Below are positions 1 through 42,600 of a stretch of DNA of 64,000 nucleotides, in pieces. The stretch's first letter is position 1. Every line of letters starts with the position of its first letter. This DNA comes from a virus: the IMG/VR virus record IMGVR_UViG_3300020470_005894, positions 29,915-93,914 of that record; one strand, 5' to 3'. The translations under genes and the position numbers were made by a program. The notes under the pieces were generated by a model, which saw only the letters and a list, made by a program, of their open reading frames with translations, was not told the DNA's origin and did no database searches.

Positions 1-266
1 TCCTCTTGTACTTTTGGTAATTCTAAAGTTATATCTGGATCTTGTATCGAGTATATAACTGGTGTGTGATTAACATAATCACGCTTTATCTGATCAGCAA
101 GTGAAATAAGCAGAGGTTCTATTTTTTTTACTTCCTCAACAACTTCCTCACTTTGGGTTTTAGCTTCTACTCGTATTTTAAGCATTCTATTTTCTAATAT
201 CGCGCCAGTAGCTAACCCTAGGCAGAATAAAGATATTCCAAAACCAGTGTACAATAAGGCTTCCAT
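1..266 (-). CDS. Partial hypothetical membrane-anchored protein (runs off the left edge)
   Basis: Hand translation from ATG at 266: MEALLYTGFGISLFCLGLATGAILENRMLKIRVEAKTQSEE..., open to position 1, with an N-terminal hydrophobic helix. Not in the ORF track. Confidence 0.55.
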   Translation of the reverse strand, partial: MEALLYTGFGISLFCLGLATGAILENRMLKIRVEAKTQSEEVVEEVKKIEPLLISLADQIKRDYVNHTPVIYSIQDPDITLELPKVQE

Positions 267-299
267 AGCTACTAATAACTAGTGATAAAACTAAAATTT

Positions 300-324
300 G
301 AGGCCTCTGTAAACCCAGGCCTCC
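300..324 (-). terminator. Stem-loop downstream of SSB gene (possible terminator or processing site)
   Basis: Minus strand GAGGCCT-gggtttacag-AGGCCTC followed by aaatttt, just after the SSB stop codon. Confidence 0.4.
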
Positions 325-340
325 CTGCGGTGGAGGAGCG

Positions 341-1084
341 TTAGCTAAGCAATTCAGCGAAAGCTTGGTCGACAGCACTACCATCAGTTGTACCATTATA
401 CTTGGATGATTCGTTTGACACGCTCTCGGCATCACTCTCCGAGAGCAGGAACTCATCAAGCATTGCTTGCACCTGCTCAGGCGTCTTGCGTTCAAAAACC
501 TCATCAAAGTTAGGAATTTGGTCCAAGAAAGTAGCTACCTCGTCTTGACTCTTCATCATTGGAGATGGCTTACGACGCGGTGTGATAGTCGTCTGTGGAA
601 ACTGCGCTCCAGCTGGCTTACCATAATTAATTGTAAGATCTGTCCCTTCAGCAACATCGGTGATATCACCATACTCGGGATTTAGTACTAGATTCAATAG
701 CTCCTTATAGGCAGTCTTTCCAAAGCCCCATAGACGTACGCCCTTCTCTTCTTCTCCACGAACAAGAACTGGAGCGAAGAAGCGTTGACGAGCGGAAAGA
801 TCCTTTGCCATCTTGATGGACTCATCTGTACCATCCTTATAAAGTTGACGGACAAAGTCGTTCAACGGATCATCTTCACCAAAATTTTTCTTTGGACTAA
901 GAAAACCAGCGTTCTTGCCTAGGTTGTAATGAAACCAGTATTCCTTAAATGGATCACCGTCAGGAGTTGGTACGATACGAATCGTCTGCTCTCCGTCCTC
1001 AGGGCGCCAAAAAACACTCTGTCCATTCCCGCGATTTTCCAAGGCATCGCGCTTTGCCTTCATCTTTGCTAAATCAATACCCAT
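341..1084 (-). CDS. Single-stranded DNA-binding protein, T4 gp32-like
   Basis: FWRP...IRIVP, GVRLWGFGK, YGDITD..EGTDL motifs and an acidic C-terminal tail ending DQAFAELLS. SD AAGGAG upstream. Confidence 0.85.
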   Translation of the reverse strand: MGIDLAKMKAKRDALENRGNGQSVFWRPEDGEQTIRIVPTPDGDPFKEYWFHYNLGKNAGFLSPKKNFGEDDPLNDFVRQLYKDGTDESIKMAKDLSARQRFFAPVLVRGEEEKGVRLWGFGKTAYKELLNLVLNPEYGDITDVAEGTDLTINYGKPAGAQFPQTTITPRRKPSPMMKSQDEVATFLDQIPNFDEVFERKTPEQVQAMLDEFLLSESDAESVSNESSKYNGTTDGSAVDQAFAELLS

Positions 1085-1181
1085 TGTATTTTCTCCTTTT
1101 TGCTTTTAGCTATAGTACAGTCGGCCAATCTCCCGACCGTCTGTTAATAGAATAAAAACCGTCTTTAATAAGTAAAATAAT

Positions 1182-2015
1182 TTATTCTACTTTTTGTTCT
1201 TGAATAAAAGACGCATGCTGCACGGTATATACGTAATCGTGCTCATAAGTTGTAGAATAAATGGCAAAGCCAGCGTCGTTCTTATCTGAAGAAGCTTCTT
1301 TTACAAAAGACCTTATCTTATGTAAGATATTCTTATCTTCTTCAAGTGTTTTTTCGTTTATACCATAAAAATAATTTTTTGTACGCGCAAATTTTAAATC
1401 ATAAAAAAGCTTTTCACTGCCAGTTTCGTAGTTTACAACGCCAAAAGTTGAAATTCTAGCAGTTTCTGGCTCCTTAGAGACAGATGTCAATAGCGGCTCA
1501 TTGTTTTCAAAAACATTGATCATATTATACGTGCTTGAAATAACATTGTTGATGTCTTTCCAGTAGTCTTTAATTGATATATTTTCCACTATTTCTTCTA
1601 CTAAATTATTTGAAACCACATACATCTTCTTCAACAACGCAGATCTGGCGTAGTTTTGCAAAATATTAAATGTAACATTACATTTAAGCTTCTCTTCGTT
1701 AGACATTTGACTAATATCAGGCTTTATAAACAAAACGGTTGTAGGTTCGCTTTTAATTTGTTCAAGGAGACGCAGAGCGCACCCACTTATGTTTCCGCTA
1801 CCACACATTATGAGAGTTGTGTCTCCCTTACATTTTGATAAACTTAACTTTTTATAGTTTTTTTCATAATCTTCATGAGAATTTTGATACTTAACCGGCA
1901 GAAATGTATCATACCCCTTGTTTTCTGTGTCAACACAAAAAACCTTATATTGTTCATAATTTTTAAAATTATTAGCTATTTGACAGCCAGCGTTTCCTAA
2001 TCCTATAATATTCAT
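1182..2015 (-). CDS. Divergent tubulin/FtsZ-family protein (PhuZ/TubZ-like)
   Basis: N-terminal IIGLGNAGCQIA loop, VDT, degenerate signature CGSGNISG (canonical GGGTGSG), VVSN and later INNVIS helix consistent with the tubulin GTPase fold. Confidence 0.65.
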   Translation of the reverse strand: MNIIGLGNAGCQIANNFKNYEQYKVFCVDTENKGYDTFLPVKYQNSHEDYEKNYKKLSLSKCKGDTTLIMCGSGNISGCALRLLEQIKSEPTTVLFIKPDISQMSNEEKLKCNVTFNILQNYARSALLKKMYVVSNNLVEEIVENISIKDYWKDINNVISSTYNMINVFENNEPLLTSVSKEPETARISTFGVVNYETGSEKLFYDLKFARTKNYFYGINEKTLEEDKNILHKIRSFVKEASSDKNDAGFAIYSTTYEHDYVYTVQHASFIQEQKVE

Positions 2016-3190
2016 TTAACTTCCCTCATAACACCAAAATTCTTTCCTATTCGTAAATTTGTTTTAATTTTGCCCAGCTTTGTATCTCCAAACTGCTGTA
2101 AGATCTCTTCAACTAGTGGTCGATCTTCCAGAGAATAATCAAGCACTAGGCTATCGTGCACACAAAAAGAAACAGTCGATTTTCTATCTGATAGAATTTT
2201 ATTAATTTTCATTGCTGAGTGTAAAAACATATCGCTAGCAGTGCTTTGCACAAGGTAATTAACTGCCTTATCCCTACCAACATCAATATTGCGCCCAAAA
2301 GGCGTATGAACGGCGTTATTGAGATAGTATTTTTCATATAGGCGGTCGCGATCTAAAAATTGATTTAACTTTTTATTTTTAGCTTGGGGGTTATAAAGCC
2401 ATGCAAATACTTTTTTCTTTGCTTGTTCGCGAGTATACTTCCCAGCAAAAATATTTTCAGAAATCCACTGATGAATATCTTCAGCGGGCTGGTCTTGTCC
2501 CAAAAGATAAAATAGAACTCTGATCTCTGCAGCATTGTAGTCCAACTCAATAAAACAGTCATTTGTAGGCTTAATTGCTCTTCTAAGGCTCTTGTTGAGA
2601 GTAAGAATAGGAAAACTATTTTTATTTGTAGTCAAACGACCTGTCACTGTACCAAAGGCGTTATAACTAATAAAAGGCGGTGAGCTTTTTATTTTTTGTA
2701 CAACTTTCCTTACCGCACTTTCCGACATGTCTAGATTGTGTAAATCTATATTTAATTTTTGTTTCTCAAGGACCTTTAAGAAAATTATTAAATCATACAA
2801 AAAATCATGATTTTCAGGTTTTTTTTCCTCTTTAAATACATGTTCAGTAATCTGATTTTTTACTTCAAAAAACTCCAGTAAAAACCAATCAGGCATTAAA
2901 TCATAAAAACATATATCTTGTAAATTAATTTTACTTTTTTGGAATGAATTTAGAAAAGCAGATGCCTTTTTGTTTAAGGCCAGCCAATATGGCTTCAAGT
3001 CCTCTGGGCAACAATCATCTAGTGTTTTGCCCATAGACCATATAATGCCACAATCGTAACGCTCATTGGCAAAATTAGATGCAGGAAACCAAGTTCGTGT
3101 TAAATTTAAATCCTCGCTAGCTTCTTTAATTTCACCGTCGACATACACACTGGTACATTGATTTTTATTATCAAGAACTTGAAAAAGCAA
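2012..3190 (-). CDS. Minimal family A DNA polymerase (polymerase core only), TTG start
   Basis: TVTGRL, motif A ELDYNAAEIRVL, motif B-like REQAKKKVFAWLY, AVNYLVQSTASD, motif C VHDSLV. Only 392 aa. Confidence 0.85.
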   Translation of the reverse strand: MLFQVLDNKNQCTSVYVDGEIKEASEDLNLTRTWFPASNFANERYDCGIIWSMGKTLDDCCPEDLKPYWLALNKKASAFLNSFQKSKINLQDICFYDLMPDWFLLEFFEVKNQITEHVFKEEKKPENHDFLYDLIIFLKVLEKQKLNIDLHNLDMSESAVRKVVQKIKSSPPFISYNAFGTVTGRLTTNKNSFPILTLNKSLRRAIKPTNDCFIELDYNAAEIRVLFYLLGQDQPAEDIHQWISENIFAGKYTREQAKKKVFAWLYNPQAKNKKLNQFLDRDRLYEKYYLNNAVHTPFGRNIDVGRDKAVNYLVQSTASDMFLHSAMKINKILSDRKSTVSFCVHDSLVLDYSLEDRPLVEEILQQFGDTKLGKIKTNLRIGKNFGVMREVK

Positions 3191-3197
3191 TTTTTCC

Positions 3198-4508
3198 TCA
3201 TTTTATGTTTTTTGTAGCAGTTACAGAGTGCTGTACTAGATTTGGCTCAGACGCCACGTCGAGTGCTTGTCGGCGAATTCGCTGATATTCACTTTCTTTA
3301 ACACCATGCCAATATGATCCTTTCATGTTAAAGGTAGTTACGTTAAATCCTTTTGTCAAATTATTAATATATTCTAAAGCAGCTTCGGGGCCAAAAAGTC
3401 TTTTATTATCAAGCATTTCATTAACAAAAAAATTAAAATTTTGATTCGTATGAGGCCTTTCTGCTTCCATTAACCTTAGCTTAAGGACAATTTTCAACCA
3501 GTATTCATAATAGGCTTCTCCAGATAACTCTAGAGGTGGATTTCTAGGCTTTCTATCACTTATAACTCTTAAATCTCGTGTGTCTTCTCTCTTTACGCAC
3601 TTAACATAATCCACTACTTCATAAGTGGCAAATTGTTTGTAAAAGCTATCATAAAGAGAGAAAAATAAATTTCTTAAATTTAACATCTCCTCTAAATGTG
3701 CCTTTCTGTAATAATATTTAAATACATTATCATAGCTAACCCCAAAGCGATCCATAAATCTTTGAGCGCCCGTTACGTTTGGGCGGTCTTTTTGCCCTGA
3801 GGCCAAATTAAAAACTAGTCGCCATGGCGCGTTTTTATCAATCATGAAACCAAACTTCTTAGCTTCGTTTGAGAAAAAAACGAAATTTGGGTCTTTTACA
3901 TAACTTAAGATCCTAGCATTCGTTGGCAGCCCATGTCTTTCGCGTGCTATCTCTATCATCAAACCACTTATAAAAGGGCTGCAGTGATTTGATAAAATAT
4001 ATCCAGTTTTCGTTACAGGAAAGTATTTTGCATTTCTTATCGCATAGCGCATGAACTCTTTTATAAATGAAAATTGATCTGTTATAGTTGCATGCCTCCT
4101 ATCAACCTGAAGATAGTTACTAACAAAATCTGTGTAAAGGTTATTAATATGTTGATTATAGTTGTATTCTAAATCGCCATGACCCCAAGCTTTCTCTACT
4201 TTTAAATTAGTTGGAAAAACACCATTGTTATCTAGCATGTTGCCATTTGCAGCCTTTCTCACATTTTTTCGAAAATCTTCAAAAGCTTCTGAAACAAAAT
4301 CTGCAGCAAAATGTGTGCCACGTGCGCCACCATAAATTTGTTTTAAATTACCATCGTCTAAATAAACAGCGTCGCCATCATTGTCTATCCTACCATAAAA
4401 TAAATGCTCACGCTCTAAATCAAAATTTACCACACCAGCAAGACGCGGATAAAAATCATTCAAATTATTTTTAGAATTAAAAATTGATTCTGTAATATTC
4501 TTTGACAT
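3198..4508 (-). CDS. Hypothetical protein (possibly virion/baseplate associated)
   Basis: 436-aa ORF coupled to the upstream hub-like gene; no motif recognised. Confidence 0.6.
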   Translation of the reverse strand: MSKNITESIFNSKNNLNDFYPRLAGVVNFDLEREHLFYGRIDNDGDAVYLDDGNLKQIYGGARGTHFAADFVSEAFEDFRKNVRKAANGNMLDNNGVFPTNLKVEKAWGHGDLEYNYNQHINNLYTDFVSNYLQVDRRHATITDQFSFIKEFMRYAIRNAKYFPVTKTGYILSNHCSPFISGLMIEIARERHGLPTNARILSYVKDPNFVFFSNEAKKFGFMIDKNAPWRLVFNLASGQKDRPNVTGAQRFMDRFGVSYDNVFKYYYRKAHLEEMLNLRNLFFSLYDSFYKQFATYEVVDYVKCVKREDTRDLRVISDRKPRNPPLELSGEAYYEYWLKIVLKLRLMEAERPHTNQNFNFFVNEMLDNKRLFGPEAALEYINNLTKGFNVTTFNMKGSYWHGVKESEYQRIRRQALDVASEPNLVQHSVTATKNIK

Positions 4509-7447
4509 TATCTAGGTTTCCCAGGTGTTTGCTGCCAGCCGGTAACTTTTGTTGTGTATGTCCCAGCGCTAAAAGTATTAGTAACAGTGCCAATCAAATG
4601 ATAACCACCTAAATTCATTTGATACGCTAAAGAGGACGCGTCTTCAACACTACCTAAGCCAGCCATGCTTGGATTGACATAATAGAACATTCCAGGTGTA
4701 AATAAGCTATTACCCACCAAATCTAGGTTTGTGTGATAAGGAAACTTTAACTGTTCTAGATTGCTTCCGCCATTTTCTATGGCCTCTCTGTATCTTGCCT
4801 CTGCAAGCCCGGGCAAAGCGACTCTTTCAAAATTCATCTTTGTCAATAGGCCGCGGTCGGATCCAATGTTAAAATGGTATATACCATCCTTAAGGTCTTC
4901 ATTTGGATTCCCTCTTCTGTCGCGAAGATTCTTAACTGTAGTAACATATATTAGCAAATAATCATACGAAGTTTTTATCATTGACTCGGAAGATTGTCCT
5001 TGGCCTAAAGCATTTAGATAAAGTTCTTTAAAAACAGGCCCGTCTACGTCAATAGTCCTGTGTAGTGGTAAAAGTTCTTTTGTTTTACCAACCATCCGAC
5101 CACAAATATTTATTGGTGCTTCGTCGGTTTGCCTACCAGGTAGAGCCATGGCAACAATACTAGACATGCTTTTTGGTAGTCTAATGCTGCTAGGCATGCC
5201 AACACCCATAGCAGGAATAACTAAATCATTGATACACTGAGTTAAAAAGTCACCCAAGGGCATCGACGCTCTTTTTTTTCTAATAATTGTTTTTAAAAAC
5301 CATGCTCTGAAATAATTAAAAGATATTGGAAACTGTGCCAAATTAATAGTTTTAATTTTTCCAGTCTTTTCGTCAAAATATTCTATGGGCCCTAATAGTA
5401 TTCTCATGTTGTTCAGGCCATAATTCAACCCAGCATCCTTATTTAGCTCCCCCTTTTTTTTGTTATAGCCATAGTAAGAAGTCTCAGTAAATGGTGGGTA
5501 AGCGCGATCTGATGTTTGCTCTCCAGAATCATTAGTCTGCACAGAGCCATATTGAAAAAATTCGTCTCCCACAGCGTTAGCATCAATCAAATCAAGGGCT
5601 TTAAATCCGGCATTTTTACATGCTAATTCTATTATATCTCCCAGGTAAACAAAATAAAATTTATAATTTTCTCCATCAAAATTTAAAGTCGTTGTTCTGG
5701 AGGGGTCTTTTTTCCTATCGCCAGTATTTTTATCAGTTGAACCAGTTTGATTTTCAGATAGAGCGTTGATATCTTGTGCAACTTCACTCTTTAAATTGGC
5801 ATCTGATGATATCAGCTGGTTACATCTACCAACTTTTATTTGTGGTTGCCCCTTGGGGATTGCAGTGGTGCCACCCTCTAGTATCTGCTGCATCGCTTCT
5901 TCGTAGCTAGCTCCTTGATTAGTCAACGACTCTACTGTTTGCTGTCGCTTAATCGGAGTTTCCTCTATCCCACCTAAATGTTTTATAACTTCATGCTTGG
6001 GTACGTTTATACAAAAAAGCCTAGTTTCTGGAGGTCCGTCGCCTCTCTGATCATTGCCAGTTATTAGTTGGTCAACAAAAGTTTTATATATGTCTTTCTT
6101 GAACATACCAACTCTTCTGCGCGTTATAGCTAGCATCTTATCTGCATTCGCTTTCTGCTTAAACCACAGATATATTTCTTCACCGTCTCCAATAATCTTG
6201 GTGACTCCCTTCCTTTTTGTTGTGGCTGGCCCACCTGCCTCTTCGAAGACAGAGGAGAACACTAAATCGCTTTCTAATACTTCTCTTAGCTTTTTTCTAG
6301 AAGTGCACTTATCATCTTTGCAGCCGGGCTCGTTTAGTTCCTTATAAAACGAGTGGATCATCGAAATTATTTTATAAATATGCGCAGGGTTGTTTTTTGG
6401 ATCTGCTGTTTTGGATATCTGACCTTTCCCTGCCTTTCCCATTCTTCTAGTGTCTTGAAAAATATTAACTTGGTTTGTGCCCACCATGGTCTCTAAGTGG
6501 CCGCGGTAATTGGCAGTAAGTAAGACTTGACCATCTTCTTGTATATCAAGATTGTAATCAACAAGTGTTAACGAAACAATTGTGTTTAATTTTTCAATTT
6601 CATTAACCATTTTTACTTCTTCTGCAGATAAATTTAAGCTTTGTAGTGCCTGCTTCGATGGCGAGGTATACCCCATGAGCACTTTTATGATATAATGTTT
6701 GGGATTGTAAGTTTCAGCGTCCTTGACGTATCTTGAGGGTGGCCATAATATTAAATCAACATATCTTAAGCCTCCTTTTGTAAAATGAGGCTCACCTGGA
6801 GGCTGCGCATTAACGTCTTTCAGAGATTTAAAAATTATACTCATGGAGCACTCTATGTTATTTTCCAATACGCCTAGAGACTCACCGTCTTGTTTGATTG
6901 TAAAAGATTTTAATCCTACATTACGCCAGTTTGGCTTTGTGGTTTCGTGCTTTAGATATTCGCTGACACTTACAACACTACCTAGTCCAAAACTATCTGC
7001 AAATTTAAACTCTTTGTAGCATGGGGTAGGGAGTGGTTCTGTCTTTCCCTGATCTGGGGTACCGTCCTCTGCAAATACTGTTTCTTCGAAGTTCACCTTA
7101 TAAATTCTAACTTTTGGCTGCATGAGGGATAAGACTGTATTCTTAATATTATAAAAAACACCTACATTATCAATGCCTCTTAATTTGTTCACAATTTGCG
7201 TACCATCTCCGTTAACTTGCCTGAAGGTCAAATAATTAAACAAGTCTTTTCTTGAGTTATAAAAATTATTAACTTTATCAATATTTTGACTCAATATGTA
7301 TTGTTCAATGTTGCCGCGATCACGGTTATCATTTGTTAAATTCTTTTTTCTGCGGATCGTCTCCTCAACAGTCAAGCCTTCACCAGGCTTAGATATTGAG
7401 TCTAAATCGCCCGAACCACCGGGGCTTGTTATATCTTTAGAAGCCAT
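4508..7447 (-). CDS. Putative baseplate hub protein (gp27/gpD-like), enlarged
   Basis: C-terminal LVGNSLFTPG...LGGYHLIGTVTNTF...YTTKVTG pattern resembles gpD/gp27 hubs; follows the LysM and tape measure genes. Confidence 0.55.
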   Translation of the reverse strand: MASKDITSPGGSGDLDSISKPGEGLTVEETIRRKKNLTNDNRDRGNIEQYILSQNIDKVNNFYNSRKDLFNYLTFRQVNGDGTQIVNKLRGIDNVGVFYNIKNTVLSLMQPKVRIYKVNFEETVFAEDGTPDQGKTEPLPTPCYKEFKFADSFGLGSVVSVSEYLKHETTKPNWRNVGLKSFTIKQDGESLGVLENNIECSMSIIFKSLKDVNAQPPGEPHFTKGGLRYVDLILWPPSRYVKDAETYNPKHYIIKVLMGYTSPSKQALQSLNLSAEEVKMVNEIEKLNTIVSLTLVDYNLDIQEDGQVLLTANYRGHLETMVGTNQVNIFQDTRRMGKAGKGQISKTADPKNNPAHIYKIISMIHSFYKELNEPGCKDDKCTSRKKLREVLESDLVFSSVFEEAGGPATTKRKGVTKIIGDGEEIYLWFKQKANADKMLAITRRRVGMFKKDIYKTFVDQLITGNDQRGDGPPETRLFCINVPKHEVIKHLGGIEETPIKRQQTVESLTNQGASYEEAMQQILEGGTTAIPKGQPQIKVGRCNQLISSDANLKSEVAQDINALSENQTGSTDKNTGDRKKDPSRTTTLNFDGENYKFYFVYLGDIIELACKNAGFKALDLIDANAVGDEFFQYGSVQTNDSGEQTSDRAYPPFTETSYYGYNKKKGELNKDAGLNYGLNNMRILLGPIEYFDEKTGKIKTINLAQFPISFNYFRAWFLKTIIRKKRASMPLGDFLTQCINDLVIPAMGVGMPSSIRLPKSMSSIVAMALPGRQTDEAPINICGRMVGKTKELLPLHRTIDVDGPVFKELYLNALGQGQSSESMIKTSYDYLLIYVTTVKNLRDRRGNPNEDLKDGIYHFNIGSDRGLLTKMNFERVALPGLAEARYREAIENGGSNLEQLKFPYHTNLDLVGNSLFTPGMFYYVNPSMAGLGSVEDASSLAYQMNLGGYHLIGTVTNTFSAGTYTTKVTGWQQTPGKPR

Positions 7448-7449
7448 CT

Positions 7450-7785
7450 TTAATATCCTATGCAGTATAAAATTGATTCTAGCGGAGTTGGAATGTAAAT
7501 CACTTGCCCTATTTCAAGGTCAAACTCAGTGGGCTTTTGATTGTAGAAGGCAATAACCCACCACATTGTTGGATCTCCATAATATTCGTCTGCTAACTTA
7601 AAAAACCTATCGCCCGTGCTCCAAATATATTTAACAGTTGTAAAATCTTCTCGGGCTTGCAAATCTGTAGGGTAGAACATTTTTGGTGTATTATATTGAC
7701 GTACACTCTCCAAGCCTCTTTTTTTTAAATAACTTTTGTATGTCTCAACGTCATTGATGAAAACTCTTTGATTTTTGTGCCTCAT
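7450..7785 (-). CDS. LysM-like baseplate protein (gp53/tail protein X-like)
   Basis: GDRFFKLADEYYGDPTMWWVIAFYN...GQVIYIP LysM-type motif; canonical position. Confidence 0.8.
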   Translation of the reverse strand: MRHKNQRVFINDVETYKSYLKKRGLESVRQYNTPKMFYPTDLQAREDFTTVKYIWSTGDRFFKLADEYYGDPTMWWVIAFYNQKPTEFDLEIGQVIYIPTPLESILYCIGY

Positions 7786-7796
7786 CTCAATCTCCT

Positions 7797-8741
7797 TTAA
7801 ATATTAGACTGCTCTATTCCAACGTTAGCACTGGTATCATTTATAACTGTTGTCCCTGTTTGACTTTGTTGCGCCTCAGGACTACCAGGTAGCGCACTAT
7901 TATCTGCAGTATTAACTGCTGCATCCTCTTGGACCCTGCCTGTTTCAGACGCGCTTTGATAGTCTTGTGTATCGCGCACCAATCCAAATTTGTATGGAAA
8001 ACCTGGAGCACGATGGCCGCCGCGCCAATTACCAGTTTGATGATCCCACCCAGCTGAAAAATCGTTAATAATCTCCATGTTAACAGTTAGCTTAATCACT
8101 TTAGGAATTAAGATGCGCTCACCCTCTCGTACAATATTATCAAAACCAGCTGATTTAATTAAACTTCCAGCTGTGTTTCCTCCACCTGCGGCCATGCCTG
8201 CTGGCACTGCGCCTATAAAACCTTCGCGGTGGTCGTGTGCGACGCGTACGCTTCTTATGACACAAAGAGCGCCGACACCTCCGGCCGCTGTTGACATGAT
8301 TAGATTTGCATATCTTACCCTAAAGAGTGGAGAAGCGGAAACTGATGTTGCAGACAAACTATCTTTATAGGATGGATATAGCGAAGCTAATAGCCAACTT
8401 AAGTTATTTAGGTTGTCCAGACCCTTAGAGATAGAACTAGAGGGTATTGTAAATCCTAAATTCATAGTTCTTGAGTTGCCTTGCCATACATGATATCTGT
8501 CGTTTCTACCGAATGGCTGCTCAGACTTATATTGCACGTTATAGCTATCGCCTAAAGTTGACACATAAGCCAAAAACTGTATTATAGGTGGATTTTTTAT
8601 ATGAACTGGTATTATCTCCAACACTGCGCCGCTTTGTGCAGCGCTGCTATTAATAAAGTCACGTTTTTTAAACTTAACATTCTGAAACTTATTTTTAGCG
8701 CCGTCGTATCCTGCTATTTCTGATTGAAAAAATTTAGGCAT
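7797..8741 (-). CDS. Putative tail tube initiator/baseplate protein (gp48/gp54-like)
   Basis: Sits between tape measure and LysM genes; FGR...W.GNSRTMNLGF and LYPSY...SPLFRVRYANL pattern. Confidence 0.5.
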   Translation of the reverse strand: MPKFFQSEIAGYDGAKNKFQNVKFKKRDFINSSAAQSGAVLEIIPVHIKNPPIIQFLAYVSTLGDSYNVQYKSEQPFGRNDRYHVWQGNSRTMNLGFTIPSSSISKGLDNLNNLSWLLASLYPSYKDSLSATSVSASPLFRVRYANLIMSTAAGGVGALCVIRSVRVAHDHREGFIGAVPAGMAAGGGNTAGSLIKSAGFDNIVREGERILIPKVIKLTVNMEIINDFSAGWDHQTGNWRGGHRAPGFPYKFGLVRDTQDYQSASETGRVQEDAAVNTADNSALPGSPEAQQSQTGTTVINDTSANVGIEQSNI

Positions 8742-23567: not shown

Positions 23568-26500
23568 CTAAGATGTTATAGTGTAAGCAGGGCCATCGGG
23601 AACAATTTGTACCGCCTCGCTGCTGCTGGCGGCGTTTGTAACTCGAAACAAGAAATTACGTGCTTGGCCAGGTGTAAGTGTATAGGTGGTTGCCGCTTGT
23701 CCCTGAGGATCGGTGACACCAGTTCCAAGATCTAGAACAATATTATTAGCGCCGTCGCCTCCACCTGTGTCGAAATCAAAATTACAATATTTAAAAGTGA
23801 ATATCTGGTTGTTAACACATCCTGGAATTGCAGCAACTATTTGAGCTGCAGTTGGTGTGATATCGGTACGCGTGCCTGATAGGGCACCGTTCGTACCCCG
23901 GGCGAGAGCTGCATAAATCAATTGTGCGACAGTTATGGTGTGATTACCATCGGTGTTGACTTGATTGAGAACTTGCGTTGTTATAATTGGGCCGTTCGCG
24001 CGTATGGCAAGAGCCGGCCAAGCTGAGTCTTGCTGAATGTCTAGAGGAACAGTCTTGGTAGCAGATCCATTGTCATTAACAATTTTAACTATTTGTTGAA
24101 GATTGGTTGATGTGCCGTCATATTCTGCATAAATCAAGTTACCGCCATTTAAACTATTATTCGTACATGTCAAGTTTATTACTTTACCACTCGTAAGAGC
24201 GTCGGCCGATACATCAATAGCGGTACCAGTTGTCAGTGCATCACCGTTAAGTTCTAAGATTATACCATCTGTTTGCTCAGAGTCAATTCTAAAGGCTCTT
24301 GCTGCGGTACCGTCTGTTCCATCAAAATCAATATCCAAGCCAACAATTGCGTTAGAATCAGATGCATTTGAAGCATCTTTAGTAATCTTAACGATTGTGT
24401 AATCATCTGTTGAAGTACCTGAGCCATTGATATCCAAAAGGACAGCGCCATTCAAGTTGTTGCTTGTGCTAGCTAGGGAGATACCCTTACCAGTAGTAAG
24501 GCCATCTGCTGAAATATTTATAACATTCGAACTAGTTAATGCGTCAGCTGTAATATCAACAACGTTTGCATCTTCATTCCCGGCGTCAATGTCAAGCGCA
24601 ATTGCGTCTGGGTCGTCATTGTCAATTAACAAAGCCGGCGCGCCTGAGTCTGAATCGTTTTCAATCTCAACTCCGTCACCATCAAGTTTAATGGCGCCGT
24701 CAATAGTGAATGTAAGATCAGCCGCATGCCCGCCGTCATCAACAGTGGTGATAGTAGTGGCGCCAGCAGCACCGACTTGAATTTTGAATAAATCATCTGC
24801 GTCTGCGGAACTTTGTATTGTTAAATCATCGCCACCATCAGCGCACTTAAGCACAAGGCCAAGATTGTTGTCGCCGCCTGTTGCAGTAATCTCCATGCCA
24901 GTGGCGGTACCGGCACCATTCGTGCCAGCAGTTGCAGTAATAATAGCACCTGTAACAGCTGCAGTTCCTGCATCTGCATCATGTGTCAGGGTCGGGGTGA
25001 TACTGGCACCAATCATTGTGTTAGTGCCGTTGGTCGCAGAAGTGTTGTCCATATCCAAAAACAAGCCATAAATTGTATTATTGGACGTTGTATTGCCTGT
25101 CTTGTCAAAGTTTATGTCCAAAGCTTTTATGGTTGCCGCGCTTGTATCAGTGTAAGTATGTGTAATTACAACACCATCTGCGTCGGCGGCGCCGGGATCA
25201 ATAGTCGCTTTACCATCTAGATTAAAACCGCCAACACATTTGATGGCGTCGGTAGCATCACCAGTGACAATAAGTGAGTCAGCTGACATGTCCCAATGTA
25301 TATGATTGCCTGCTGACTCTCCATAGAACTTAAAGTCAATACCATGATTATCTGCGCCACCGATAAGAATACCCTCAGTTTCACCATCGTGATCCCATGT
25401 AATTCCTACATGTGCCGCTGTAGCAGAATGCAATACAAGATCTGCGCCGTCGCCGCTGGTACCGACGTTAAGTGTGGATCCATCAAAAGTAAGTTGGGCT
25501 TCGCCGTTTAGAGCGTCCGAAGAGCTAAACGTTGCTATTCGATCATCTGAACCATTTGCGACAGCAGAAACTGCACCGCCGCCGCCACTGGCCCAAGAAG
25601 GTATACCGCTGGCTAACTTAAGGACTTGGCCATCCGATCCTTTTGCCAATCTTACATACTTAGTGCCATTATAATATAAAATGTCACCAGATGCATCTGA
25701 GCCGACAGCAAAGCCACCTGCAAAAGTAACCAACTGTGCTTCACTGATCGTAAGGGCTGTTTGGAGCCCAGAATCATTATTAGTTTTAAGAATCAGCTGG
25801 CCTTTTTCATCGTCGGATGAACCAACATGGCTAACTTCAATCTGACCTAATGCGTTATTACCATGATCCTCAAATATAATCTTGGTTTCACACCCTCCAG
25901 CAGAGTTCTCAGAAGTGCTGTTCTGCAAAGTTAGATAAGCATCGGCGCCTTTAAGCTGAAGTAGGGTGCCTGGAGCTGAATCGCCAATACCAACATTGCC
26001 ATCAGTATGAATTCGCATGCGTTCTGCAGGGGTGGCAGCTGCTGTACCACTTGATCCTGCTACGGCAGTCTTGAATTGTATTGATGAAGTGCCAGTGCCT
26101 GTAGCTGCTCCAGATGATAATACTAGATCTCCGCCAGTCCTATTTGCTGTGCCGGAACCAGCTGTTACACCGCCTGAAGTAATTGTCAGACTCTTGCCTG
26201 CTGTTCCTGCAGCCGTAGCAGTAACGCCAAGTGTTGCGTTCTGGCCGTTTCCATAAGTGACGTCTCCGCCAGAGACAGTTAGGTCACCAGTTAATGTAAC
26301 ATCATTTGGTAGACCAATTGTGACAGTGGTGCCGGTGGCCGAGGTGTTAACCTCATTGCTTGTGCCGACTATTGATAAAGTCTCGCTGTTGAGATCAATA
26401 TCAATCGTTCCTGAATCTGCAGTAACATCCAGATCTTCAGCTGTGATTAGAGCTTCAATCTTATCTTGAATAGCAGCAGATGTCATTAGGCTTGTGTTAT

Positions 26501-29243
26501 TATCCGCAAAGGATTCTCCAGACGTTTGTATAGCTGTCACACCGACACTGTCAAAAGTTAAAGTACCGCCACTAATAGTGACGGCGCCGGCGAAGGTTGC
26601 TAGTTTATTGCTGTCTAGCCTTAATACTTCGGATTGTGAGGCGTCAGCATCGGTTGTGTACATAACCAAGGCTGCCCCATTTTCACTTGCGCTCCAGCCG
26701 GCATCACAGATTGCTTCAATTCTTGCACCAACGGTGATTGTACCTGATCCGTCTTCTGCGCCGGCAAACTCAATAACACCTAAGCGATCGTCATCGGCCA
26801 TCGCGGCGGTGTCGTCGGAGGCTAGCCTTATAAAGCCACCTGATGAGCCTCCGCTGGCAGATCGATCAGTTATTGTAAGTTCCGGATCGGTGCCGGCAGA
26901 CTCCATTTTGATATCCCCAGTAAAAGTAGCCAAGCCATCGTCGTCAATTGTAAGTCTTACGGTGGGCACATGGTTGTCAGCATCATGTGTCGTCGCAAAA
27001 ACAATTTTCGATGGAACTGCACCTTCTCTGGCAACTGCATCGCCGGCAAACTGAATATAAGCAGCTAATTTTGCTTCGTCACTAGATCCATCACCGTCAT
27101 TCGTGACTCCCCAAGCAGCGATCTCGCCAATAACCTCTCCTGCGGCTGTGTGACTGCCAGCCCCAAAAGTATTAATAGTGTCATTTGCTACTTTTTGAAA
27201 TAATAGGCGGCCAGCTCCGCTGGCTCCATCGGTAGCATCTGACCAGCTGCTAATTTCAATTGTTGGACGAGATGCATCGCTGCTGGATTCTGTGTTAGAA
27301 ACCTCCAACATATAGCTCGGGTAGGGGTTGCCAATACCAACGAGACCTGTGTCTAAAATTCGCATGCGCTCGGCAATAGTTTCCCCATTGGTTGTAGAAA
27401 AGCTTAAATATGCGTCATTTTCATTACCATCCCATGTTTGGGCTGCATGTGCTGAGATTCTTGCTCCTTCACTAATTGTGTTCGAGCTATCTTCAGAAGC
27501 ACGGAAAGAAATGGCCCCTATATTATGAGTTGAAGTAATTGGAGCGTTGTCGTCTTGGACTAATATCAGGTAAGCGCCGTTGGCCGAGGAGGTGCCAGAG
27601 CCGCTGGTGTTTTTAACAGTCAAATCTCCAGCACTATATGTTAATGTAGACTCCGAAGTAACCGTACCATCGCCATCGTCTGTAAGAAGTTGATTTGCTG
27701 CCCCGTCGACGCCAACGGGATGCAAATCAGAAACAGAAAGTACGCCGCTGCTGGCGCTAAGACCAGTCGCAGAGGCAGTGCCGGCGATTGCAGTAACCAA
27801 ATCAGAGACTGATTCAGCTTTTGGTACGCCCGTGGCGCTGCCATCCAAGATTACTAAATGATCATCAGCTACAGCAACAGCTGCAGCTGCAAGGTTAAGT
27901 TTGGTCACCTGGCCAGAGCTATTTACTACTATTGCTGTGTTTGTTCCATGGGCAGAGCCATGGCCAATTTCGAGCGTATTGTCTCCGTCATCAAGTCCGA
28001 TTCGATAGTCTTGTTCGTTTCCGTCGAACACCAGCATTGTATCTTCTGCGCCAGCGTCACCGATGGTAAGCTTAGGGCTTGCTCCAGCTAATATAACTTC
28101 TCCGTCACCAGATGTTATAGTTAAGCCACCGTCTGAAGCAACTGCCAAAGTAGAAGCGTTACTTCCGTCATATGAAAGCTTAAGTTGCGTGCTAGCGCCA
28201 TATACTTCAAGTAAAGAATCCGGGTCGGAGACACCAATACCAACGTAGCCATCTTCGTCAATAACCATTTTTGTAGTTGCTGCCTCGCTCTTCCCAGTTT
28301 GGAAGACCAAAGCAGTTGAATTGACAGTATCTGAAAACGTGGCTTGTGCTATTGCTGCAATGGACGCCCCAATTTCATCTGAATCCGTACCAGTATCAAG
28401 AGGCGCGTAGAAATTAATACGTCCTAAGACATCATTTGCTACGACCGTAGGCTCTTTTGTTGCAAGCGTCAATACCGCGCCTGTTGTAGTAAGCCCACTC
28501 CTTATTTCAAGATCTGATATGGGGTCGACTGTTCCGATACCAATTTTGCCGGTAGAGCGTACAGTTAAATGTGTATCTGTAGCAGTAGAACTACCGTGAA
28601 GATTAAAAACACCACCTTGTGTATTCATCCCTCCAACGATGGAACCGTCTCTTCTAACTGATACGTGGCCGTGGCTATTGGCTGATGTTCCTCCAACAAT
28701 ATTTCCAACAACATCTAACTTGTATGCTGGAGTTGCGGATCCGATGCCGACTCTATCATTTGTGTAGTTGTATACAAAATTGCTTGATCCGCTATGAACA
28801 TTGTTTTTAGCAAAAATTACATGCTTATCATTTTCATAGCCCATATGAAAAGAAGAGGAACTTAAGCTACCAAGTACTATAGAACCGATAGTATCTTCAA
28901 AAGATAATTTCACCCAAGTGCCAGCGGCTCCCGCTGAACCAGAATAAATAACCCAATCATTATAATTCCAACTAGTGTAGCCCTCGACGTTGTGTGTGCC
29001 AGAGCTAGTAACTTGCCAATAATCACCGGCGGCTGCGGTTAACGGATATGTTACATCTGCAGAATAACCGCTAGCTCTGGTGCTACTACCTGTCTGAAAA
29101 AGACCTGCCAAAGGACCACCGTATTCACCATCGACGCCGGATCCGGTGCCAAAGTTTTTAGTAGCATCCCAATAGCCTCTAAACCTAGCGGCGCCTAAAA
29201 AGGCAATACTTCCTGTTGCTATGGCATCATATTGTGTTGGCAT
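23568..29243 (-). CDS. Large fibre-like structural protein (1891 aa)
   Basis: Gly/Ser/Thr/Asp-rich; five (V/I)GIGxxxP repeats typical of trimeric beta fibres; located in the head gene cluster. Confidence 0.6.
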   Translation of the reverse strand: MPTQYDAIATGSIAFLGAARFRGYWDATKNFGTGSGVDGEYGGPLAGLFQTGSSTRASGYSADVTYPLTAAAGDYWQVTSSGTHNVEGYTSWNYNDWVIYSGSAGAAGTWVKLSFEDTIGSIVLGSLSSSSFHMGYENDKHVIFAKNNVHSGSSNFVYNYTNDRVGIGSATPAYKLDVVGNIVGGTSANSHGHVSVRRDGSIVGGMNTQGGVFNLHGSSTATDTHLTVRSTGKIGIGTVDPISDLEIRSGLTTTGAVLTLATKEPTVVANDVLGRINFYAPLDTGTDSDEIGASIAAIAQATFSDTVNSTALVFQTGKSEAATTKMVIDEDGYVGIGVSDPDSLLEVYGASTQLKLSYDGSNASTLAVASDGGLTITSGDGEVILAGASPKLTIGDAGAEDTMLVFDGNEQDYRIGLDDGDNTLEIGHGSAHGTNTAIVVNSSGQVTKLNLAAAAVAVADDHLVILDGSATGVPKAESVSDLVTAIAGTASATGLSASSGVLSVSDLHPVGVDGAANQLLTDDGDGTVTSESTLTYSAGDLTVKNTSGSGTSSANGAYLILVQDDNAPITSTHNIGAISFRASEDSSNTISEGARISAHAAQTWDGNENDAYLSFSTTNGETIAERMRILDTGLVGIGNPYPSYMLEVSNTESSSDASRPTIEISSWSDATDGASGAGRLLFQKVANDTINTFGAGSHTAAGEVIGEIAAWGVTNDGDGSSDEAKLAAYIQFAGDAVAREGAVPSKIVFATTHDADNHVPTVRLTIDDDGLATFTGDIKMESAGTDPELTITDRSASGGSSGGFIRLASDDTAAMADDDRLGVIEFAGAEDGSGTITVGARIEAICDAGWSASENGAALVMYTTDADASQSEVLRLDSNKLATFAGAVTISGGTLTFDSVGVTAIQTSGESFADNNTSLMTSAAIQDKIEALITAEDLDVTADSGTIDIDLNSETLSIVGTSNEVNTSATGTTVTIGLPNDVTLTGDLTVSGGDVTYGNGQNATLGVTATAAGTAGKSLTITSGGVTAGSGTANRTGGDLVLSSGAATGTGTSSIQFKTAVAGSSGTAAATPAERMRIHTDGNVGIGDSAPGTLLQLKGADAYLTLQNSTSENSAGGCETKIIFEDHGNNALGQIEVSHVGSSDDEKGQLILKTNNDSGLQTALTISEAQLVTFAGGFAVGSDASGDILYYNGTKYVRLAKGSDGQVLKLASGIPSWASGGGGAVSAVANGSDDRIATFSSSDALNGEAQLTFDGSTLNVGTSGDGADLVLHSATAAHVGITWDHDGETEGILIGGADNHGIDFKFYGESAGNHIHWDMSADSLIVTGDATDAIKCVGGFNLDGKATIDPGAADADGVVITHTYTDTSAATIKALDINFDKTGNTTSNNTIYGLFLDMDNTSATNGTNTMIGASITPTLTHDADAGTAAVTGAIITATAGTNGAGTATGMEITATGGDNNLGLVLKCADGGDDLTIQSSADADDLFKIQVGAAGATTITTVDDGGHAADLTFTIDGAIKLDGDGVEIENDSDSGAPALLIDNDDPDAIALDIDAGNEDANVVDITADALTSSNVINISADGLTTGKGISLASTSNNLNGAVLLDINGSGTSTDDYTIVKITKDASNASDSNAIVGLDIDFDGTDGTAARAFRIDSEQTDGIILELNGDALTTGTAIDVSADALTSGKVINLTCTNNSLNGGNLIYAEYDGTSTNLQQIVKIVNDNGSATKTVPLDIQQDSAWPALAIRANGPIITTQVLNQVNTDGNHTITVAQLIYAALARGTNGALSGTRTDITPTAAQIVAAIPGCVNNQIFTFKYCNFDFDTGGGDGANNIVLDLGTGVTDPQGQAATTYTLTPGQARNFLFRVTNAASSSEAVQIVPDGPAYTITS

Positions 29244-39602: not shown

Positions 39603-42600
39603 TCATTCATTTACATATGCCTTTCCATTTATTTTCTCAATCATAATCTGACTATCAACAATGTCTTTGAGAGAATCTAAGTGAGAGATTAAAAGCACAG
39701 TCTTAAACTGTGTTTTGATCATATCTAGAATTCTAATGAAGCCTTCCATATTTTCTGCGTCTAAAGCTGTCCCGGGCTCATCTAAAATAAATATATCTCC
39801 CTTTGGAAGGGTGGAGACATTCAACAAAGCTAATCGGATCGCCATGGCTGCAATTGTTTTTTCTGCTCCAGACCCCATCTCGATAGGTCTTGCGTCATAG
39901 CTTGGGTGCTTGATAAGAATGTCTAGCTTTTTATCATCATTTTCAAAAAAGATATCAAATTCAACAATATTGGTTAAAATCTTTGAAATCTCGTCGTTGA
40001 TTAAAGGCAGGCGTTTTTTAATGATATCATAAGATATGCCATTTGGATGTGTACATCTCATAAATAAGTCTGCAGTTGTATACTCTTCCTGCATATCTAA
40101 AAATTTCTGCTTATGTTCTTTTAATTCTGTATTTTTTTGTTCATATCTGCCAACTGAGGTATACAAATCAATAAGATTTTTCTTTAAAACAACTGACTCA
40201 TCGTTACAGAAGTCAATTTGTTTGCTAATTTTATCTCTCTCAAGAACTAATTGTTCAAAATTTTCAATAACTTCTCTATTTTGCTCATATAATTGTTCTT
40301 TCTCCTCTAAATTTTCTAAGAAATTTTTTGCTTTCAAGAGTTTAATTTTATCTTTTTCAACATCAATCTCTAATTGTGAAACATCTTCACGCTTTGTAAC
40401 TCTTTTCTCCATTAAAAGCTGATATTTATCATAGTATTCGTTAATTTTGTGAGTATCAAGCTCTTTTAATTTTGAATTAATTGTTATCTTATTAAGAGAA
40501 AGTTGGTTAATTCCTATCTTTACTCTATTGGTATCGTCCAAAGTGTTTCTGGCATCTTTAACAAAATGACAACGATCGCTAAGTTTTATAGAGCATGGGA
40601 TATTTTTTAGAAGATTTAATTTTGTATCAATTACTCCTCTTCTGGCCTCATATGTTAAGATCTCCTCTTCAATTTGTTGCAGCCTCTGTGTATATTCACT
40701 AGCAATTTGTTTTTTAGAATTAACGTCTTCAATGTCAAAGCCATTAAGGAAATTTTCAATTTTCTGTAAAAAGTTTTTTTCATTTACCAGTGCCTCCTTC
40801 TTTTTTGTTAGGTTGACATCTAGTATTGTAGCCTGCTTTTTAATCTTCTTGAGGTCTCTAACTACTTTCTTGATATCAACCACTTCTTCTGGAATAGAGT
40901 TGATTTGATGCTCAATATTTTTAAAATTGTCTTGTAAAATTCTTAATTCTTCTAATTTTTGCTTCTCTAGTCTCTGCTGGTTGAGCATCTTAGTTTCAAT
41001 GCGCGCAAATTCAGTATTTGACAGCTGAATTTCGCTATCAAAATCCCTATCTTCCATCTTTCTTATCGCGCCTTTTAAATCAGAACAATCATCTTTTACT
41101 AATTTAAACTTTTTTTCAAAAATTTCTAAATCTAAAAACTTAGCTAAAATTTCTTTTCTACGTGTAGAGCCTTCGTTAATATATGAAAGAGAGTCTAGTT
41201 GGCTAGCCATTGAAGTAGTCAAAAAATCATCGATAGTGCCGAAAATTTTACGTATATTTTTATCTGTTTCATTTCTGGTAATCCCATTCAATGGTGTTTC
41301 TGTACCAGTTGCGTTATCATATACAGAAAATTCTATATCTGTTTTTGCCTCATCAGTTTTTTTGCCTTTTAGAGTCTTTACATACTTTTTACTAACTCTT
41401 TCAATTTTATATGTCTTTGTACCAATATCAATTTCAACATAACCGCGGCAATCCTGCTCTTCTTGGTTGATTAAATTAAAATTACGACGATTATTCTTTG
41501 ATGTAGTATTGTAGATCGTATATAACATACTGTCAATAATACTAGATTTTCCAGAAAAATTCTTTCCCAAAATACCAACAACACCGTCTAACTTTGAAAA
41601 ATCAATCGAGTTGGATTCACCATAATTAAAGAGATTATCCCACTCTAGCTTCTTTAGCTTCCAATTGATGTTTCTTCGTATGTCCTCTTCTTCTTCAACT
41701 ACAGTATTGTATTTACGATTCATTTCATAAACCCGCTTAAGGGTTTCATCGTCTGGCTGATAATCGTTTAAATACTCATTAATAAACTGCTCTTGCACTG
41801 CAATATCACGAAGATCTTCCTGAAAAAAAGAATTTGTTAAAGATTCTACGCTGCCTCTCTCTCCCGCAGATCTGCTAAGATAAGTCACGCTCTCTGGTTT
41901 AAATCGAACCTTTGCAACATCGACCGCGCGGCGTACAACATCTAAAGGTAAGTTATTCTCAGAAATAAGCCTTAATCTAGCACTTTTTTGTACATTTAGC
42001 TTGTTAGGCAGCCTACCCTTAGGAGTAAGCTTAACAGTTACAAAAGGTTTAGGATTTTGCAAAATTATATGCTTACAGGTAAAGTTATCTTTATCTAGAA
42101 TGTCCCATAATAGAAAACCCTTGTCGTTTGTTTCGCCATGGTTTTGTTGCACCGTTGATCCGCAGTATCTAATTTTACCACTTTTGTCGAGCGACTGGTT
42201 GGTTTTGTGAATATCTCCAAGAAAACCATAGTCGAAATTATTAAAAATGTTGATATCATCGTCGCCATGCTCCATTTTCCAGCCAGTATCAGTCTTTACG
42301 CCGCCAACAGAACCGTGATACAAAGCAATATTAATTCGCTCATAGCTGGTGGGATTCTGCCAATTGTCTCTGTCAAAAACTGAAAGAACGTTAATAGTAA
42401 ATTGATCATCTAATCTCACCTCCCCTGAGTCCTTAAGTAAATATAAGCTTGGATGATTTAAAGCAGAAACTATAGGTGTTAAAGCATCTTGGCGGCTTGA
42501 GTTTTTTAAATTACCGTCATGGTTGCCAAGAATCACGTAAGTTGGTGCAATATCCGCCAAGTTTCTAAGAAAATCCGAACACATCTCAACAAACTCAGGG

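Follow-up and report, generated by a model that had tools for sequence, protein, structure and literature searches.

Organization of the locus

The window analyzed here is a stretch of 64,000 nucleotides (nt), bases 29915–93914 of the 93.9-kb IMG/VR viral record IMGVR_UViG_3300020470_005894, the completeness of which was estimated by CheckV at 52%. According to the calls of open reading frames (ORFs), every gene in its first 8 kb is on the minus strand. Three of these genes form the module in question: a divPolA1-type miniature family A DNA polymerase (PolA; 2012–3190, minus strand, 392 amino acids (aa), TTG start), a predicted minimal protein of the tubulin/FtsZ superfamily, hereafter Tub (1182–2015, minus strand, 277 aa), and a gp32-type single-stranded DNA-binding protein (SSB; 341–1084, minus strand, 247 aa), the last recognized by Pfam gp32 (2.1e-12) and phrog_1192 (2.9e-26). 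The PolA stop codon TGA overlaps the Tub start codon as ATGA at 2012–2015 of the minus strand (TCAT on the plus strand), and a 97-nt spacer with a conserved hairpin and a GGAG Shine–Dalgarno sequence (1085–1181, minus strand) separates Tub from SSB. The overlap and the gp32-like SSB as the next gene had already been read from the sequence in the initial annotation of this stretch, and both were found as described. In the direction of transcription, the order is a 979-aa ORF, a 436-aa ORF, PolA, Tub, the spacer and SSB.

Predicted fold of Tub

The AlphaFold2 (AF2) model of Tub, built from a 27-sequence alignment, had a predicted local distance difference test (pLDDT) value of 93.0 and a predicted template modeling (pTM) score of 0.90, with no disordered segment. 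A Foldseek search of the PDB returned only FtsZ and TubZ at the top (SaFtsZ, 3.8e-13; TubZ 4ei7, 1.2e-12), aligned over the full length with a probability of 1.00 and a template modeling (TM) score of about 0.7 (0.70 for FtsZ). VIA-align, an exhaustive structural search of 48,161 chains independent of Foldseek, gave the same picture: all of its top 17 matches belong to the tubulin superfamily, with Z-scores of 15.8–24.5 over residues 1–275. They were led by CetZ (3zid, Z 24.5) and CetZ2 (4b45, Z 23.5), followed by TubZ (4ei7, Z 22.7; 3m8k, Z 21.1 at 20% identity), FtsZ (2vaw, Z 21.1), various eukaryotic, bacterial and Asgard tubulins (Z 19.4–20.6), the TubZ of phage c-st (4xcq, Z 18.6) and various PhuZ structures (Z 16.4–16.5). 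Among the predicted viral structures of BFVD, the best match was an "FtsZ" of an uncultured Caudovirales phage (6.2e-14), and PhuZ of phage Noxifer was found at 1.6e-6. The exact Tub sequence is also present in the ESM Atlas with a confident model of its own (pTM 0.90), and the clusters next to it there are entirely viral. The name given automatically to one of these clusters is "Tubulin/FtsZ GTPase domain-containing protein (Fragment)", which means that some annotation pipeline had flagged at least one member of the Tub family. As judged from the models, Tub has the two-domain tubulin/FtsZ fold, consisting of a Rossmann-like nucleotide-binding domain, the core helix H7 and a C-terminal beta-sheet domain. 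The initial annotation had proposed a tubulin-like protein, and the comparison of the predicted structure with PhuZ, TubZ, FtsZ and CetZ agrees with it.

By sequence, this fold is invisible to annotation. Pfam gave nothing above threshold for Tub, with sub-threshold matches to Rossmann N-terminal domains only; PHROGs assigned no family; searches of PDB sequences with phmmer and with a profile of 137 family members retrieved only KtrA/Rossmann N-terminal matches; and a tblastn comparison with 50,697 phage records was negative. The Pfam Tubulin family (PF00091) did not match Tub and touched a single one of the 137 members, at 5.6e-4, below the cut-off. The hhalign probabilities were 0.8% against E. 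coli FtsZ and 2.7% against phiKZ PhuZ, negatives that carry little weight as single-sequence comparisons. The N-terminal matches raise the question of whether Tub is instead a Rossmann-type NAD(P)-binding enzyme unrelated to tubulin, its GxGxxG start being misleading. The weak Pfam and PDB sequence matches to TrkA_N, 3HCDH_N and KtrA point that way and are confined to residues 3–87. In contrast, the full-length model fits all 17 tubulin-superfamily structures, while the best Rossmann enzyme, the short-chain dehydrogenase/reductase 5if3, which is also the best non-tubulin match of any kind, reaches Z 9.8 and covers residues 1–137 only; moreover, the model contains core helix H7 as well as the C-terminal beta-sheet domain. 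Given this drop from Z 15.8–24.5 to 9.8, together with the Foldseek and ESM Atlas results, the enzyme identity was rejected and can be given almost no credence.

Anatomy, nucleotide pocket and conservation

The N-terminal part of the AF2 model contains S1, H1, S2, S3, a short helix (47–52), S4, H4, S5, H5 (106–124), S6 and H6, followed by core helix H7 (151–170), a short T7 loop and a C-terminal domain of four main strands and two helices. Because H2, H8, the helix between the first two main strands of the C-terminal domain and the C-terminal extension are all absent in comparison with FtsZ, the model describes a minimal version of the tubulin/FtsZ fold. About 9 residues follow the last strand, and tails in the family consist of 2–12 variable residues after a conserved I/V-Q.

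Despite its probability of 0.8%, the hhalign alignment with E. coli FtsZ follows the structurally expected register. GLGNAG (Tub 5–10) falls on the GGGGG run of the FtsZ T1 loop, CGSGNISG (71–78) on the GGGTGTG signature (T4), IKPD on TKPF (T5), SNN on PND (T6) and DYWKDINNVI on DAFGAANDVL (H7), whereas the place of the T3 loop is taken by a family-specific E48-x-Y50-E51 motif. The pocket positions kept in Tub are G5, G7 and G10 (T1), G72, G74, S77 and G78 (T4), N136 (T6), N156 (H7) and N171-x-E173 (T7). Both glycine-rich motifs had been named in the initial annotation, which called the tubulin degenerate. This is a fair description: the T4 loop G72-S-G74-N-I-S77-G78 agrees with the strict pattern [SAG]-G-G-T-G-[SA]-G at 4 of 7 positions only, the threonine and the fifth-position glycine being replaced. 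In contrast to the accompanying statement that no clear T7 loop is visible, a candidate loop of the T7 type, NNEPLLT (171–177) with N171, E173 and P174, follows H7, but no H8 helix is predicted.

In close relatives, defined by an identity of 51% or more, G5, G7, G10, G78, N136, N156, E173, P174 and L176 are invariant, and G72, G74, S77 and N171 are kept in 90% or more. Family-wide conservation was assessed in an alignment of 137 diverse representatives that are 27–47% identical to the Tub of the window. Glycine or alanine occupies the three T1 positions in 129 of them, serine or threonine position 77 in 110, and asparagine positions 136 and 156 in 110 and 113, respectively. The most conserved positions overall are G7, Q120, R124, S125, L81, Q272, G72, Y23 and E48/Y50/E51. 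The family is acidic, with a median isoelectric point (pI) of 5.65 (5.7 for Tub itself), and PolA is basic (pI 8.3).

The Tub family and its gene order

A word-indexed search yielded 253 Tub clusters at 90% identity, with lengths of about 275–290 aa; all stem from marine metagenomes, Tara among them, and the contigs measure up to 186 kb. An exhaustive HMMER search over 1.84 billion representatives found 755 Tub proteins, counted at 50% identity, with a threshold of E ≤ 1e-3, and 300 when the threshold was E ≤ 1e-30. As far as these sequence sets tell, the family is large, marine and restricted to phages.

In 80 of 80 related IMG/VR loci (36–64% Tub identity), Tub is immediately preceded by PolA and followed by SSB, as far as the flanks extend. 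The same order recurs in 14 of 14 loci of a distant branch (29–37% identity), the seed of which was among the most distant representatives listed, so that in total 94 of 94 related viral contigs share it, down to a Tub identity of 29%. An arrangement found in every contig of both sets is not due to chance. The initial annotation had viewed polymerase, tubulin and SSB as one module that might or might not be kept in relatives; the survey shows that it is, including the PolA–Tub pairing. The Tub reading frame is intact and 275–290 aa long in all 94 loci, and such constancy down to 29% identity indicates strong purifying selection. SSB of the relatives is 44–89% identical to that of the window.

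The junction between PolA and Tub could be resolved in 72 related loci. The 4-nt ATGA overlap occurs in 29 of them, and about 50 have the two genes abutting within 20 nt; the remaining arrangement, an insert of 0.3–2 kb, is found in 22 (about 30%). Translational coupling, as previously proposed, is common among these loci without being a universal property of the gene pair. In the two loci where the insert was read (L031:5690–6001 and L062:5693–6004), it is a 103-aa ORF coupled by overlaps on both sides. It has no Pfam match; to our eye its KLVRD-IP start recalls nucleoside triphosphate pyrophosphatases of the MazG/PRA-PH type, which makes these a candidate only.

Exactly one Tub and one PolA, the latter of 391–399 aa, are encoded by each of two complete relatives, one of 180.7 kb with terminal repeats and the other of 184.2 kb. 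Tub has a constant place, in a single copy, at the start of a replication–recombination block with the order divPolA1, Tub, gp32 SSB and RecA/UvsX, then 5′–3′ exonuclease, DnaB helicase and ribonucleotide reductase (RNR), and farther on DnaE. A second tubulin or a chimallin elsewhere in the genome, which had been considered at the outset, was not detected. PF00091 found no canonical tubulin in the record itself (52% complete) or in the two complete relatives; the chimallin search of the same genomes, also negative, used phiKZ gp54 as a single-sequence query for a fast-evolving protein and had no positive control.

Proposed role of Tub

Taken together, these results suggest that Tub represents a new and very compact tubulin/FtsZ family restricted to one clade of marine, uncultured T4-like myoviruses with genomes of about 180 kb. 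As to its function, we favor, tentatively, a nucleotide-binding protein that assembles with itself head-to-tail and scaffolds or positions the replication–recombination machinery or the replicating DNA. The gene would probably be transcribed early, together with divPolA1. The protein would bind a guanine nucleotide in a reduced pocket made of loops T1, T4 and T6 and helix H7, and self-assemble head-to-tail via the T7 face. The assembly would then serve as a scaffold concentrating or positioning the replication–recombination machinery or the replicating DNA, probably in contact with divPolA1 and/or SSB, and would be neither a nucleus spindle of the PhuZ type nor a partition motor of the TubZ type.

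We infer nucleotide binding, assembly, partners and role from the company that Tub keeps, both structural and genomic. To our knowledge, every characterized two-domain member of the tubulin/FtsZ superfamily polymerizes, namely FtsZ, tubulins, BtubA/B, TubZ, PhuZ, CetZ and OdinTubulin. The Tub of the window keeps the whole reduced pocket and the N-x-E of the T7 loop, and its gene is embedded among DNA-handling genes.

Several observations weigh against this role. Neither an H8 helix nor a C-terminal tail is predicted in the AF2 model, and such tails are used in PhuZ and TubZ filaments. The best-conserved residues, Q120, R124, S125, Q272 and E48/Y50/E51, are not classic GTPase residues. Within the 137 representatives, position 74 of the T4 loop is glycine in 79 and aspartate or glutamate in 26, and position 173 of the T7 loop is acidic in 60 and lysine or arginine in 40. 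All seven pocket positions are kept in only 45 of the 137, and together with the acidic T7 residue in only 25, the Tub of the window being among them. From this alignment, the GTPase motifs appear unevenly eroded rather than constrained family-wide. Moreover, neither an adaptor gene nor a centromere-like repeat was seen beside Tub.

The divPolA1-type polymerase

The 392-aa PolA is recognized by Pfam DNA_pol_A (5.4e-15), and its AF2 model has a pLDDT of 91.9. The public record calls a product of 378 aa from an internal ATG (the region concerned is 3149–3190 of the window). That start is probably 14 codons too short, because nearly all homologs have 392 aa and a GAGGA Shine–Dalgarno sequence lies 4 nt upstream of the TTG. 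By VIA-align, PolA is matched over its whole length to Pol nu (Z 23.4) and to the Klenow fragment (Z 22.1), with 373 of its 392 residues placed on Klenow 352–928. Since the model aligns from Klenow residue 352 onward, a reduced exonuclease-like N-terminus is predicted to be retained; residues 1–143 match exonuclease folds weakly (Z 5.5–6.0), and the exonuclease motifs could not be aligned by hhalign with the Klenow exonuclease domain. The domains must be shortened, as 392 aa span what takes 577 residues in Klenow. Mapping by hhalign on E. coli Pol I (95.4% probability) placed motif A at D217 and E222 (D705 and E710 in Pol I), motif B at R254, K258, F262 and Y266 (R754, K758, F762 and Y766) and motif C at H345, D346 and S347 (H881, D882 and E883). 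Hence, both metal-binding aspartates, the steric-gate glutamate (E222) and the O-helix residues are present. At the position of Klenow E883, the serine of motif C (residues 343–351, window 2156–2164) is invariant in 28 homologs; T7 RNA polymerase has H-D-S in its motif C.

The polymerase itself is not new. The family divPolA1 was described by Yutin, Tolstoy, Mutz, Wolf, Krupovic and Koonin in 14 phages of 155–190 kb, Flavobacterium phage immuto and its relatives (Yutin et al., 2024, Virol J 21:200, PMC11348598). Its members have a conserved palm, a truncated thumb and an exonuclease inactivated by replacement of the catalytic aspartates; a regular polymerase, from family A, B or C, is encoded by these phages as well, and replication genes are conserved downstream (PMC11348598). 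The PolA of the window belongs to this family by sequence, since the family profile matches immuto ORF1, the 441-aa divPolA1 of the type phage, at 1.2e-14, and the order downstream in immuto (SSB, RecA, 5′–3′ exonuclease, DnaB and RNR) is the one found here. The likeness extends to the small size, the conserved palm and a regular polymerase besides, whereas the version of the marine clade is shorter (392 versus 441 aa) and has the Tub gene between PolA and SSB; neither "tubulin" nor "FtsZ" occurs in the text of PMC11348598. As the phage has a DnaE-type polymerase, the miniature enzyme is an additional one. The earlier description of a miniature PolA is to be corrected in that the protein is a known type, is not the sole polymerase and does not consist purely of a polymerase domain.

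The family profile detected no Tub in Flavobacterium phage vB_FspM_immuto or in Microcystis phage Mel-JY01, which are also the nearest cultured phages by TerL (about 43% identity). Judging from these genomes, divPolA1 exists without a detectable Tub, and Tub appears to be an addition of the marine clade to a conserved block. Unrelated-looking hypothetical ORFs occupy the slot between divPolA1 and SSB, two in immuto (151 and 171 aa; L103:1346–2318) and three in Mel-JY01 (129, 110 and 428 aa; L104:5675–7692). No similarity to Tub was found by hhalign for three of them (151, 171 and 428 aa), a weak test that compares sequences only; a reading of these ORFs as a tubulin in split or long form is unsupported. 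They could be functional analogs of Tub.

The properties of this polymerase open another possible role, that of a non-polymerizing pseudo-GTPase acting as an accessory subunit of divPolA1, i.e., a partner for DNA holding, processivity or recruitment comparable to thioredoxin in T7 DNA polymerase. It is the chief alternative to the favored role, and we regard it as possible, if somewhat unlikely. It would account for the adjacency of the two genes in all 94 loci, most of which have a junction of the ATGA type or of 1–2 nt, the ATGA overlap in 29 and the distance within 20 nt in about 50 of the 72 resolved junctions, and it would offer a complement to a polymerase of which 373 residues fit Klenow 352–928 and the family of which has a truncated thumb and an inactivated exonuclease (PMC11348598). 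The erosion of the GTPase motifs and T7 beside the nearly invariant Q120, R124, S125 and Q272, the missing H8 and tail, the complementary charge of Tub and PolA and the lack of a detected phage beta-clamp in the complete relatives would also fit. However, divPolA1 occurs in immuto and Mel-JY01 with no detectable Tub, 22 of the 72 loci have a 0.3–2 kb gene between PolA and Tub, and no PolA–Tub fusion was found among proteins longer than 485 aa, although this is a weak test. Moreover, adjacency in a phage operon is no evidence of a physical complex. A broader version, in which the smallest complete tubulin/FtsZ fold known is a non-cytoskeletal subunit of the polymerase or replisome, a partner of the thumb-less divPolA1 and/or gp32, seems to us unlikely. 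If true, it would be the first tubulin-superfamily protein to take part in DNA synthesis rather than in a filament, and one widespread in ocean phages. Both functional alternatives had been raised in the initial annotation, as a filament that organizes replication and as a GTPase-dead partner of the polymerase. The favored self-assembly and the partnership with the polymerase are not mutually exclusive, as a filament could recruit the polymerase.

Comparison with known tubulins

The best structural match of Tub is CetZ, the archaeal cell-shape proteins, with a root-mean-square deviation of 2.8–2.9 Å over 252–257 residues in both domains and a shared T1 loop of the type G-x-G-x-A-G. In contrast, the identity is 12–13%, Tub is about 60 residues shorter and lacks H2, H8 and the helix after S10, its signature loop is reduced to G-x-G-x-x-S-G, and the family is viral and placed in a replication operon.

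TubZ, the type III partition GTPase of Bacillus plasmids of the pBtoxis/pXO1 type and of phage c-st, resembles Tub both in structure (Z 22.7 and 21.1) and in its residence on a mobile element or phage in association with DNA. Tub could accordingly be imagined as a segregation motor of the TubZ kind, used to partition phage genomes in pseudolysogeny or a carrier state, for instance, the more so as TubZ structures (4ei7; 3m8k) are among its closest matches and a phage-borne TubZ partition system exists in Clostridium phage c-st (cited in PMC7824862). Yet no TubR-like adaptor gene and no iterated repeats resembling the tubC centromere lie beside Tub, the 97-nt spacer containing one hairpin, and no C-terminal tail is predicted. 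The setting is a lytic T4-like replication block rather than a partition cassette, and the annotated parts of the genome showed neither an integrase nor partition genes. We consider such a motor very improbable.

The likeness to FtsZ rests on the Foldseek match, a VIA-align Z of 21.1 and the hhalign register on T1, T4, T5, T6 and H7. It contrasts with the hhalign probability of 0.8%, the single sub-threshold contact of the family with PF00091, the E-x-Y-E motif in place of the T3 loop and the absence of a C-terminal linker or peptide. Phages often block host cell division, and a protein with the FtsZ fold might do so as a host-directed mimic that caps or poisons the Z-ring during infection. 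A variable T7 face, with lysine or arginine at position 173 in 40 of 137 representatives, may befit a capping subunit. On the other hand, Tub and FtsZ are only 11–14% identical; T3, H2 and H8 are missing or replaced, which makes co-assembly with host FtsZ unlikely; and the fixed place inside replication genes argues for a role in replication. Mimicry of FtsZ is therefore improbable in our estimate.

PhuZ, the spindle protein of the Chimalliviridae jumbo phages, is likewise a phage-encoded protein of tubulin fold (Z 16.4–16.5; Noxifer in BFVD at 1.6e-6). It is nevertheless the most distant of the tubulin-family matches of Tub, which lacks the acidic C-terminal tail of PhuZ and is carried by T4-like genomes of about 180 kb, where no chimallin or canonical tubulin was detected in the two complete relatives.

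As far as we know, phage tubulins have been recognized in two contexts, as the spindle protein PhuZ in nucleus-forming jumbo phages and as TubZ in the partition system of Clostridium phage c-st. In full-text searches confined to open-access PubMed Central and bioRxiv, the only phage tubulins encountered were PhuZ and TubZ, and no description of the Tub family turned up. We regard Tub as a new family in a new context, next to a polymerase that is already known. It would be a third lineage of phage tubulins, abundant in the ocean, the metagenomes of which contain hundreds of its sequence clusters, and of far smaller size than the other lineages (about 277 aa; without tail, H2 and H8), wired into the replication–recombination genes of ordinary-sized T4-like phages with no detectable nuclear shell. 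A cytoskeleton-type protein may therefore work with DNA replication in such phages. Should Tub polymerize, it would offer a minimal tubulin for the study of filament mechanics, and cytoskeletal organization of phage replication would not be confined to jumbo phages; should it not, it would be the first tubulin fold repurposed as a partner of a replisome or polymerase.

Transcription signals and the SSB leader

Signals for transcription were examined as sequence patterns only. In relatives with a spacer before PolA, sigma-70-type elements precede the gene, for example TTGACT-N17-TATATT in locus L024 and TTGACA-N17-TATTAT in L031 and L036. Because such elements are present wherever a spacer exists, PolA and Tub seem to head an early or middle transcription unit rather than to form the tail of the preceding structural operon. 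In the window, the upstream spacer of PolA measures 7 nt, so that any promoter before it would lie inside the 436-aa gene.

Directly after the Tub stop codon, several relatives have a near-consensus sigma-70 element resembling TTGACA-N17-TATAAT. When 24 Tub–SSB spacers (from loci among L002–L054) were aligned, a hairpin emerged the stem of which is kept by compensatory changes (RNAalifold energy −14.9) and the loop of which is conserved (GAGATT/AATATT). In the window, this hairpin lies at 1117–1140 with an 8-bp stem and the loop GAGATTGG. A conserved ACTATAGCT box lies before the strong Shine–Dalgarno sequence of SSB, which in the window is the GGAG at 1093–1096. The promoter-like element, the leader hairpin and the box with its Shine–Dalgarno sequence indicate that SSB has a putative control region of its own. 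T4 gp32 autoregulates its synthesis, and by analogy the hairpin may be a translational (autoregulatory) operator of the gp32 type or an element marking a transcript boundary.

Over positions 1–8000 of the window, a promoter scan gave 31 hits, not above the 24.4 ± 4.9 of shuffled sequences. Terminator-like sites were more numerous than in shuffles (12 versus 5.6 ± 2.2, about 2.9 standard deviations above), and none of the 12 is located at a gene end of the PolA–Tub–SSB module. Public sequencing runs that contain parts of the stretch are marine DNA metagenomes only, with no RNA run among them.

Genome context and further observations

The two ORFs upstream of PolA, of 436 aa (3198–4508, minus strand) and 979 aa (4508–7447, minus strand), belong to no Pfam or PHROG family and are kept in every locus with enough flank. 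As both come after genes for sheath, tube and hub, we infer a role in the baseplate. A T4-like contractile-tail module is present in the window, with sheath, baseplate hub, the phrog_138 major head protein, the phrog_213 portal and TerL, and the window also encodes a primase.

Beyond SSB, outside the window, the record continues with a 97-aa ORF, RecA/UvsX, a dCMP deaminase and a GDP-mannose dehydratase, further with a stand-alone 5′–3′ exonuclease, a DnaB-type helicase and a class II RNR, and farther on with a 1141-aa DnaE (Pol III alpha), followed by a dUTPase, an enzyme of the IMPDH/GMP-reductase family, ClpP and GroEL. The DnaE of this genome, upstream of the window start (L083:1369–4794), is full-length with PHP, Pol III alpha, fingers and HhH domains. 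Neither a PolA-type 3′–5′ exonuclease (PF01612, above cut-off) nor the N-terminal domain of DnaN (PF00712) was found in the record or in the two complete relatives; the clamp and proofreading may be supplied by the host or be too divergent to be seen.

Four large ORFs on the minus strand, at 56840–63967 (2375 aa), 51535–55845 (1436 aa), 48627–51542 (971 aa) and 23568–29243 (1891 aa), make up about one-third of the window and have no Pfam match at E ≤ 0.01, that of 971 aa being also without a PHROG match. Finally, a 1053-aa ORF at 39603–42764 (minus strand) encodes a fused nuclease of the SbcCD (gp47/gp46) type, in which PHROGs matched an SbcD-like part at residues 1–376 and an SbcC-like part at residues 184–1053.

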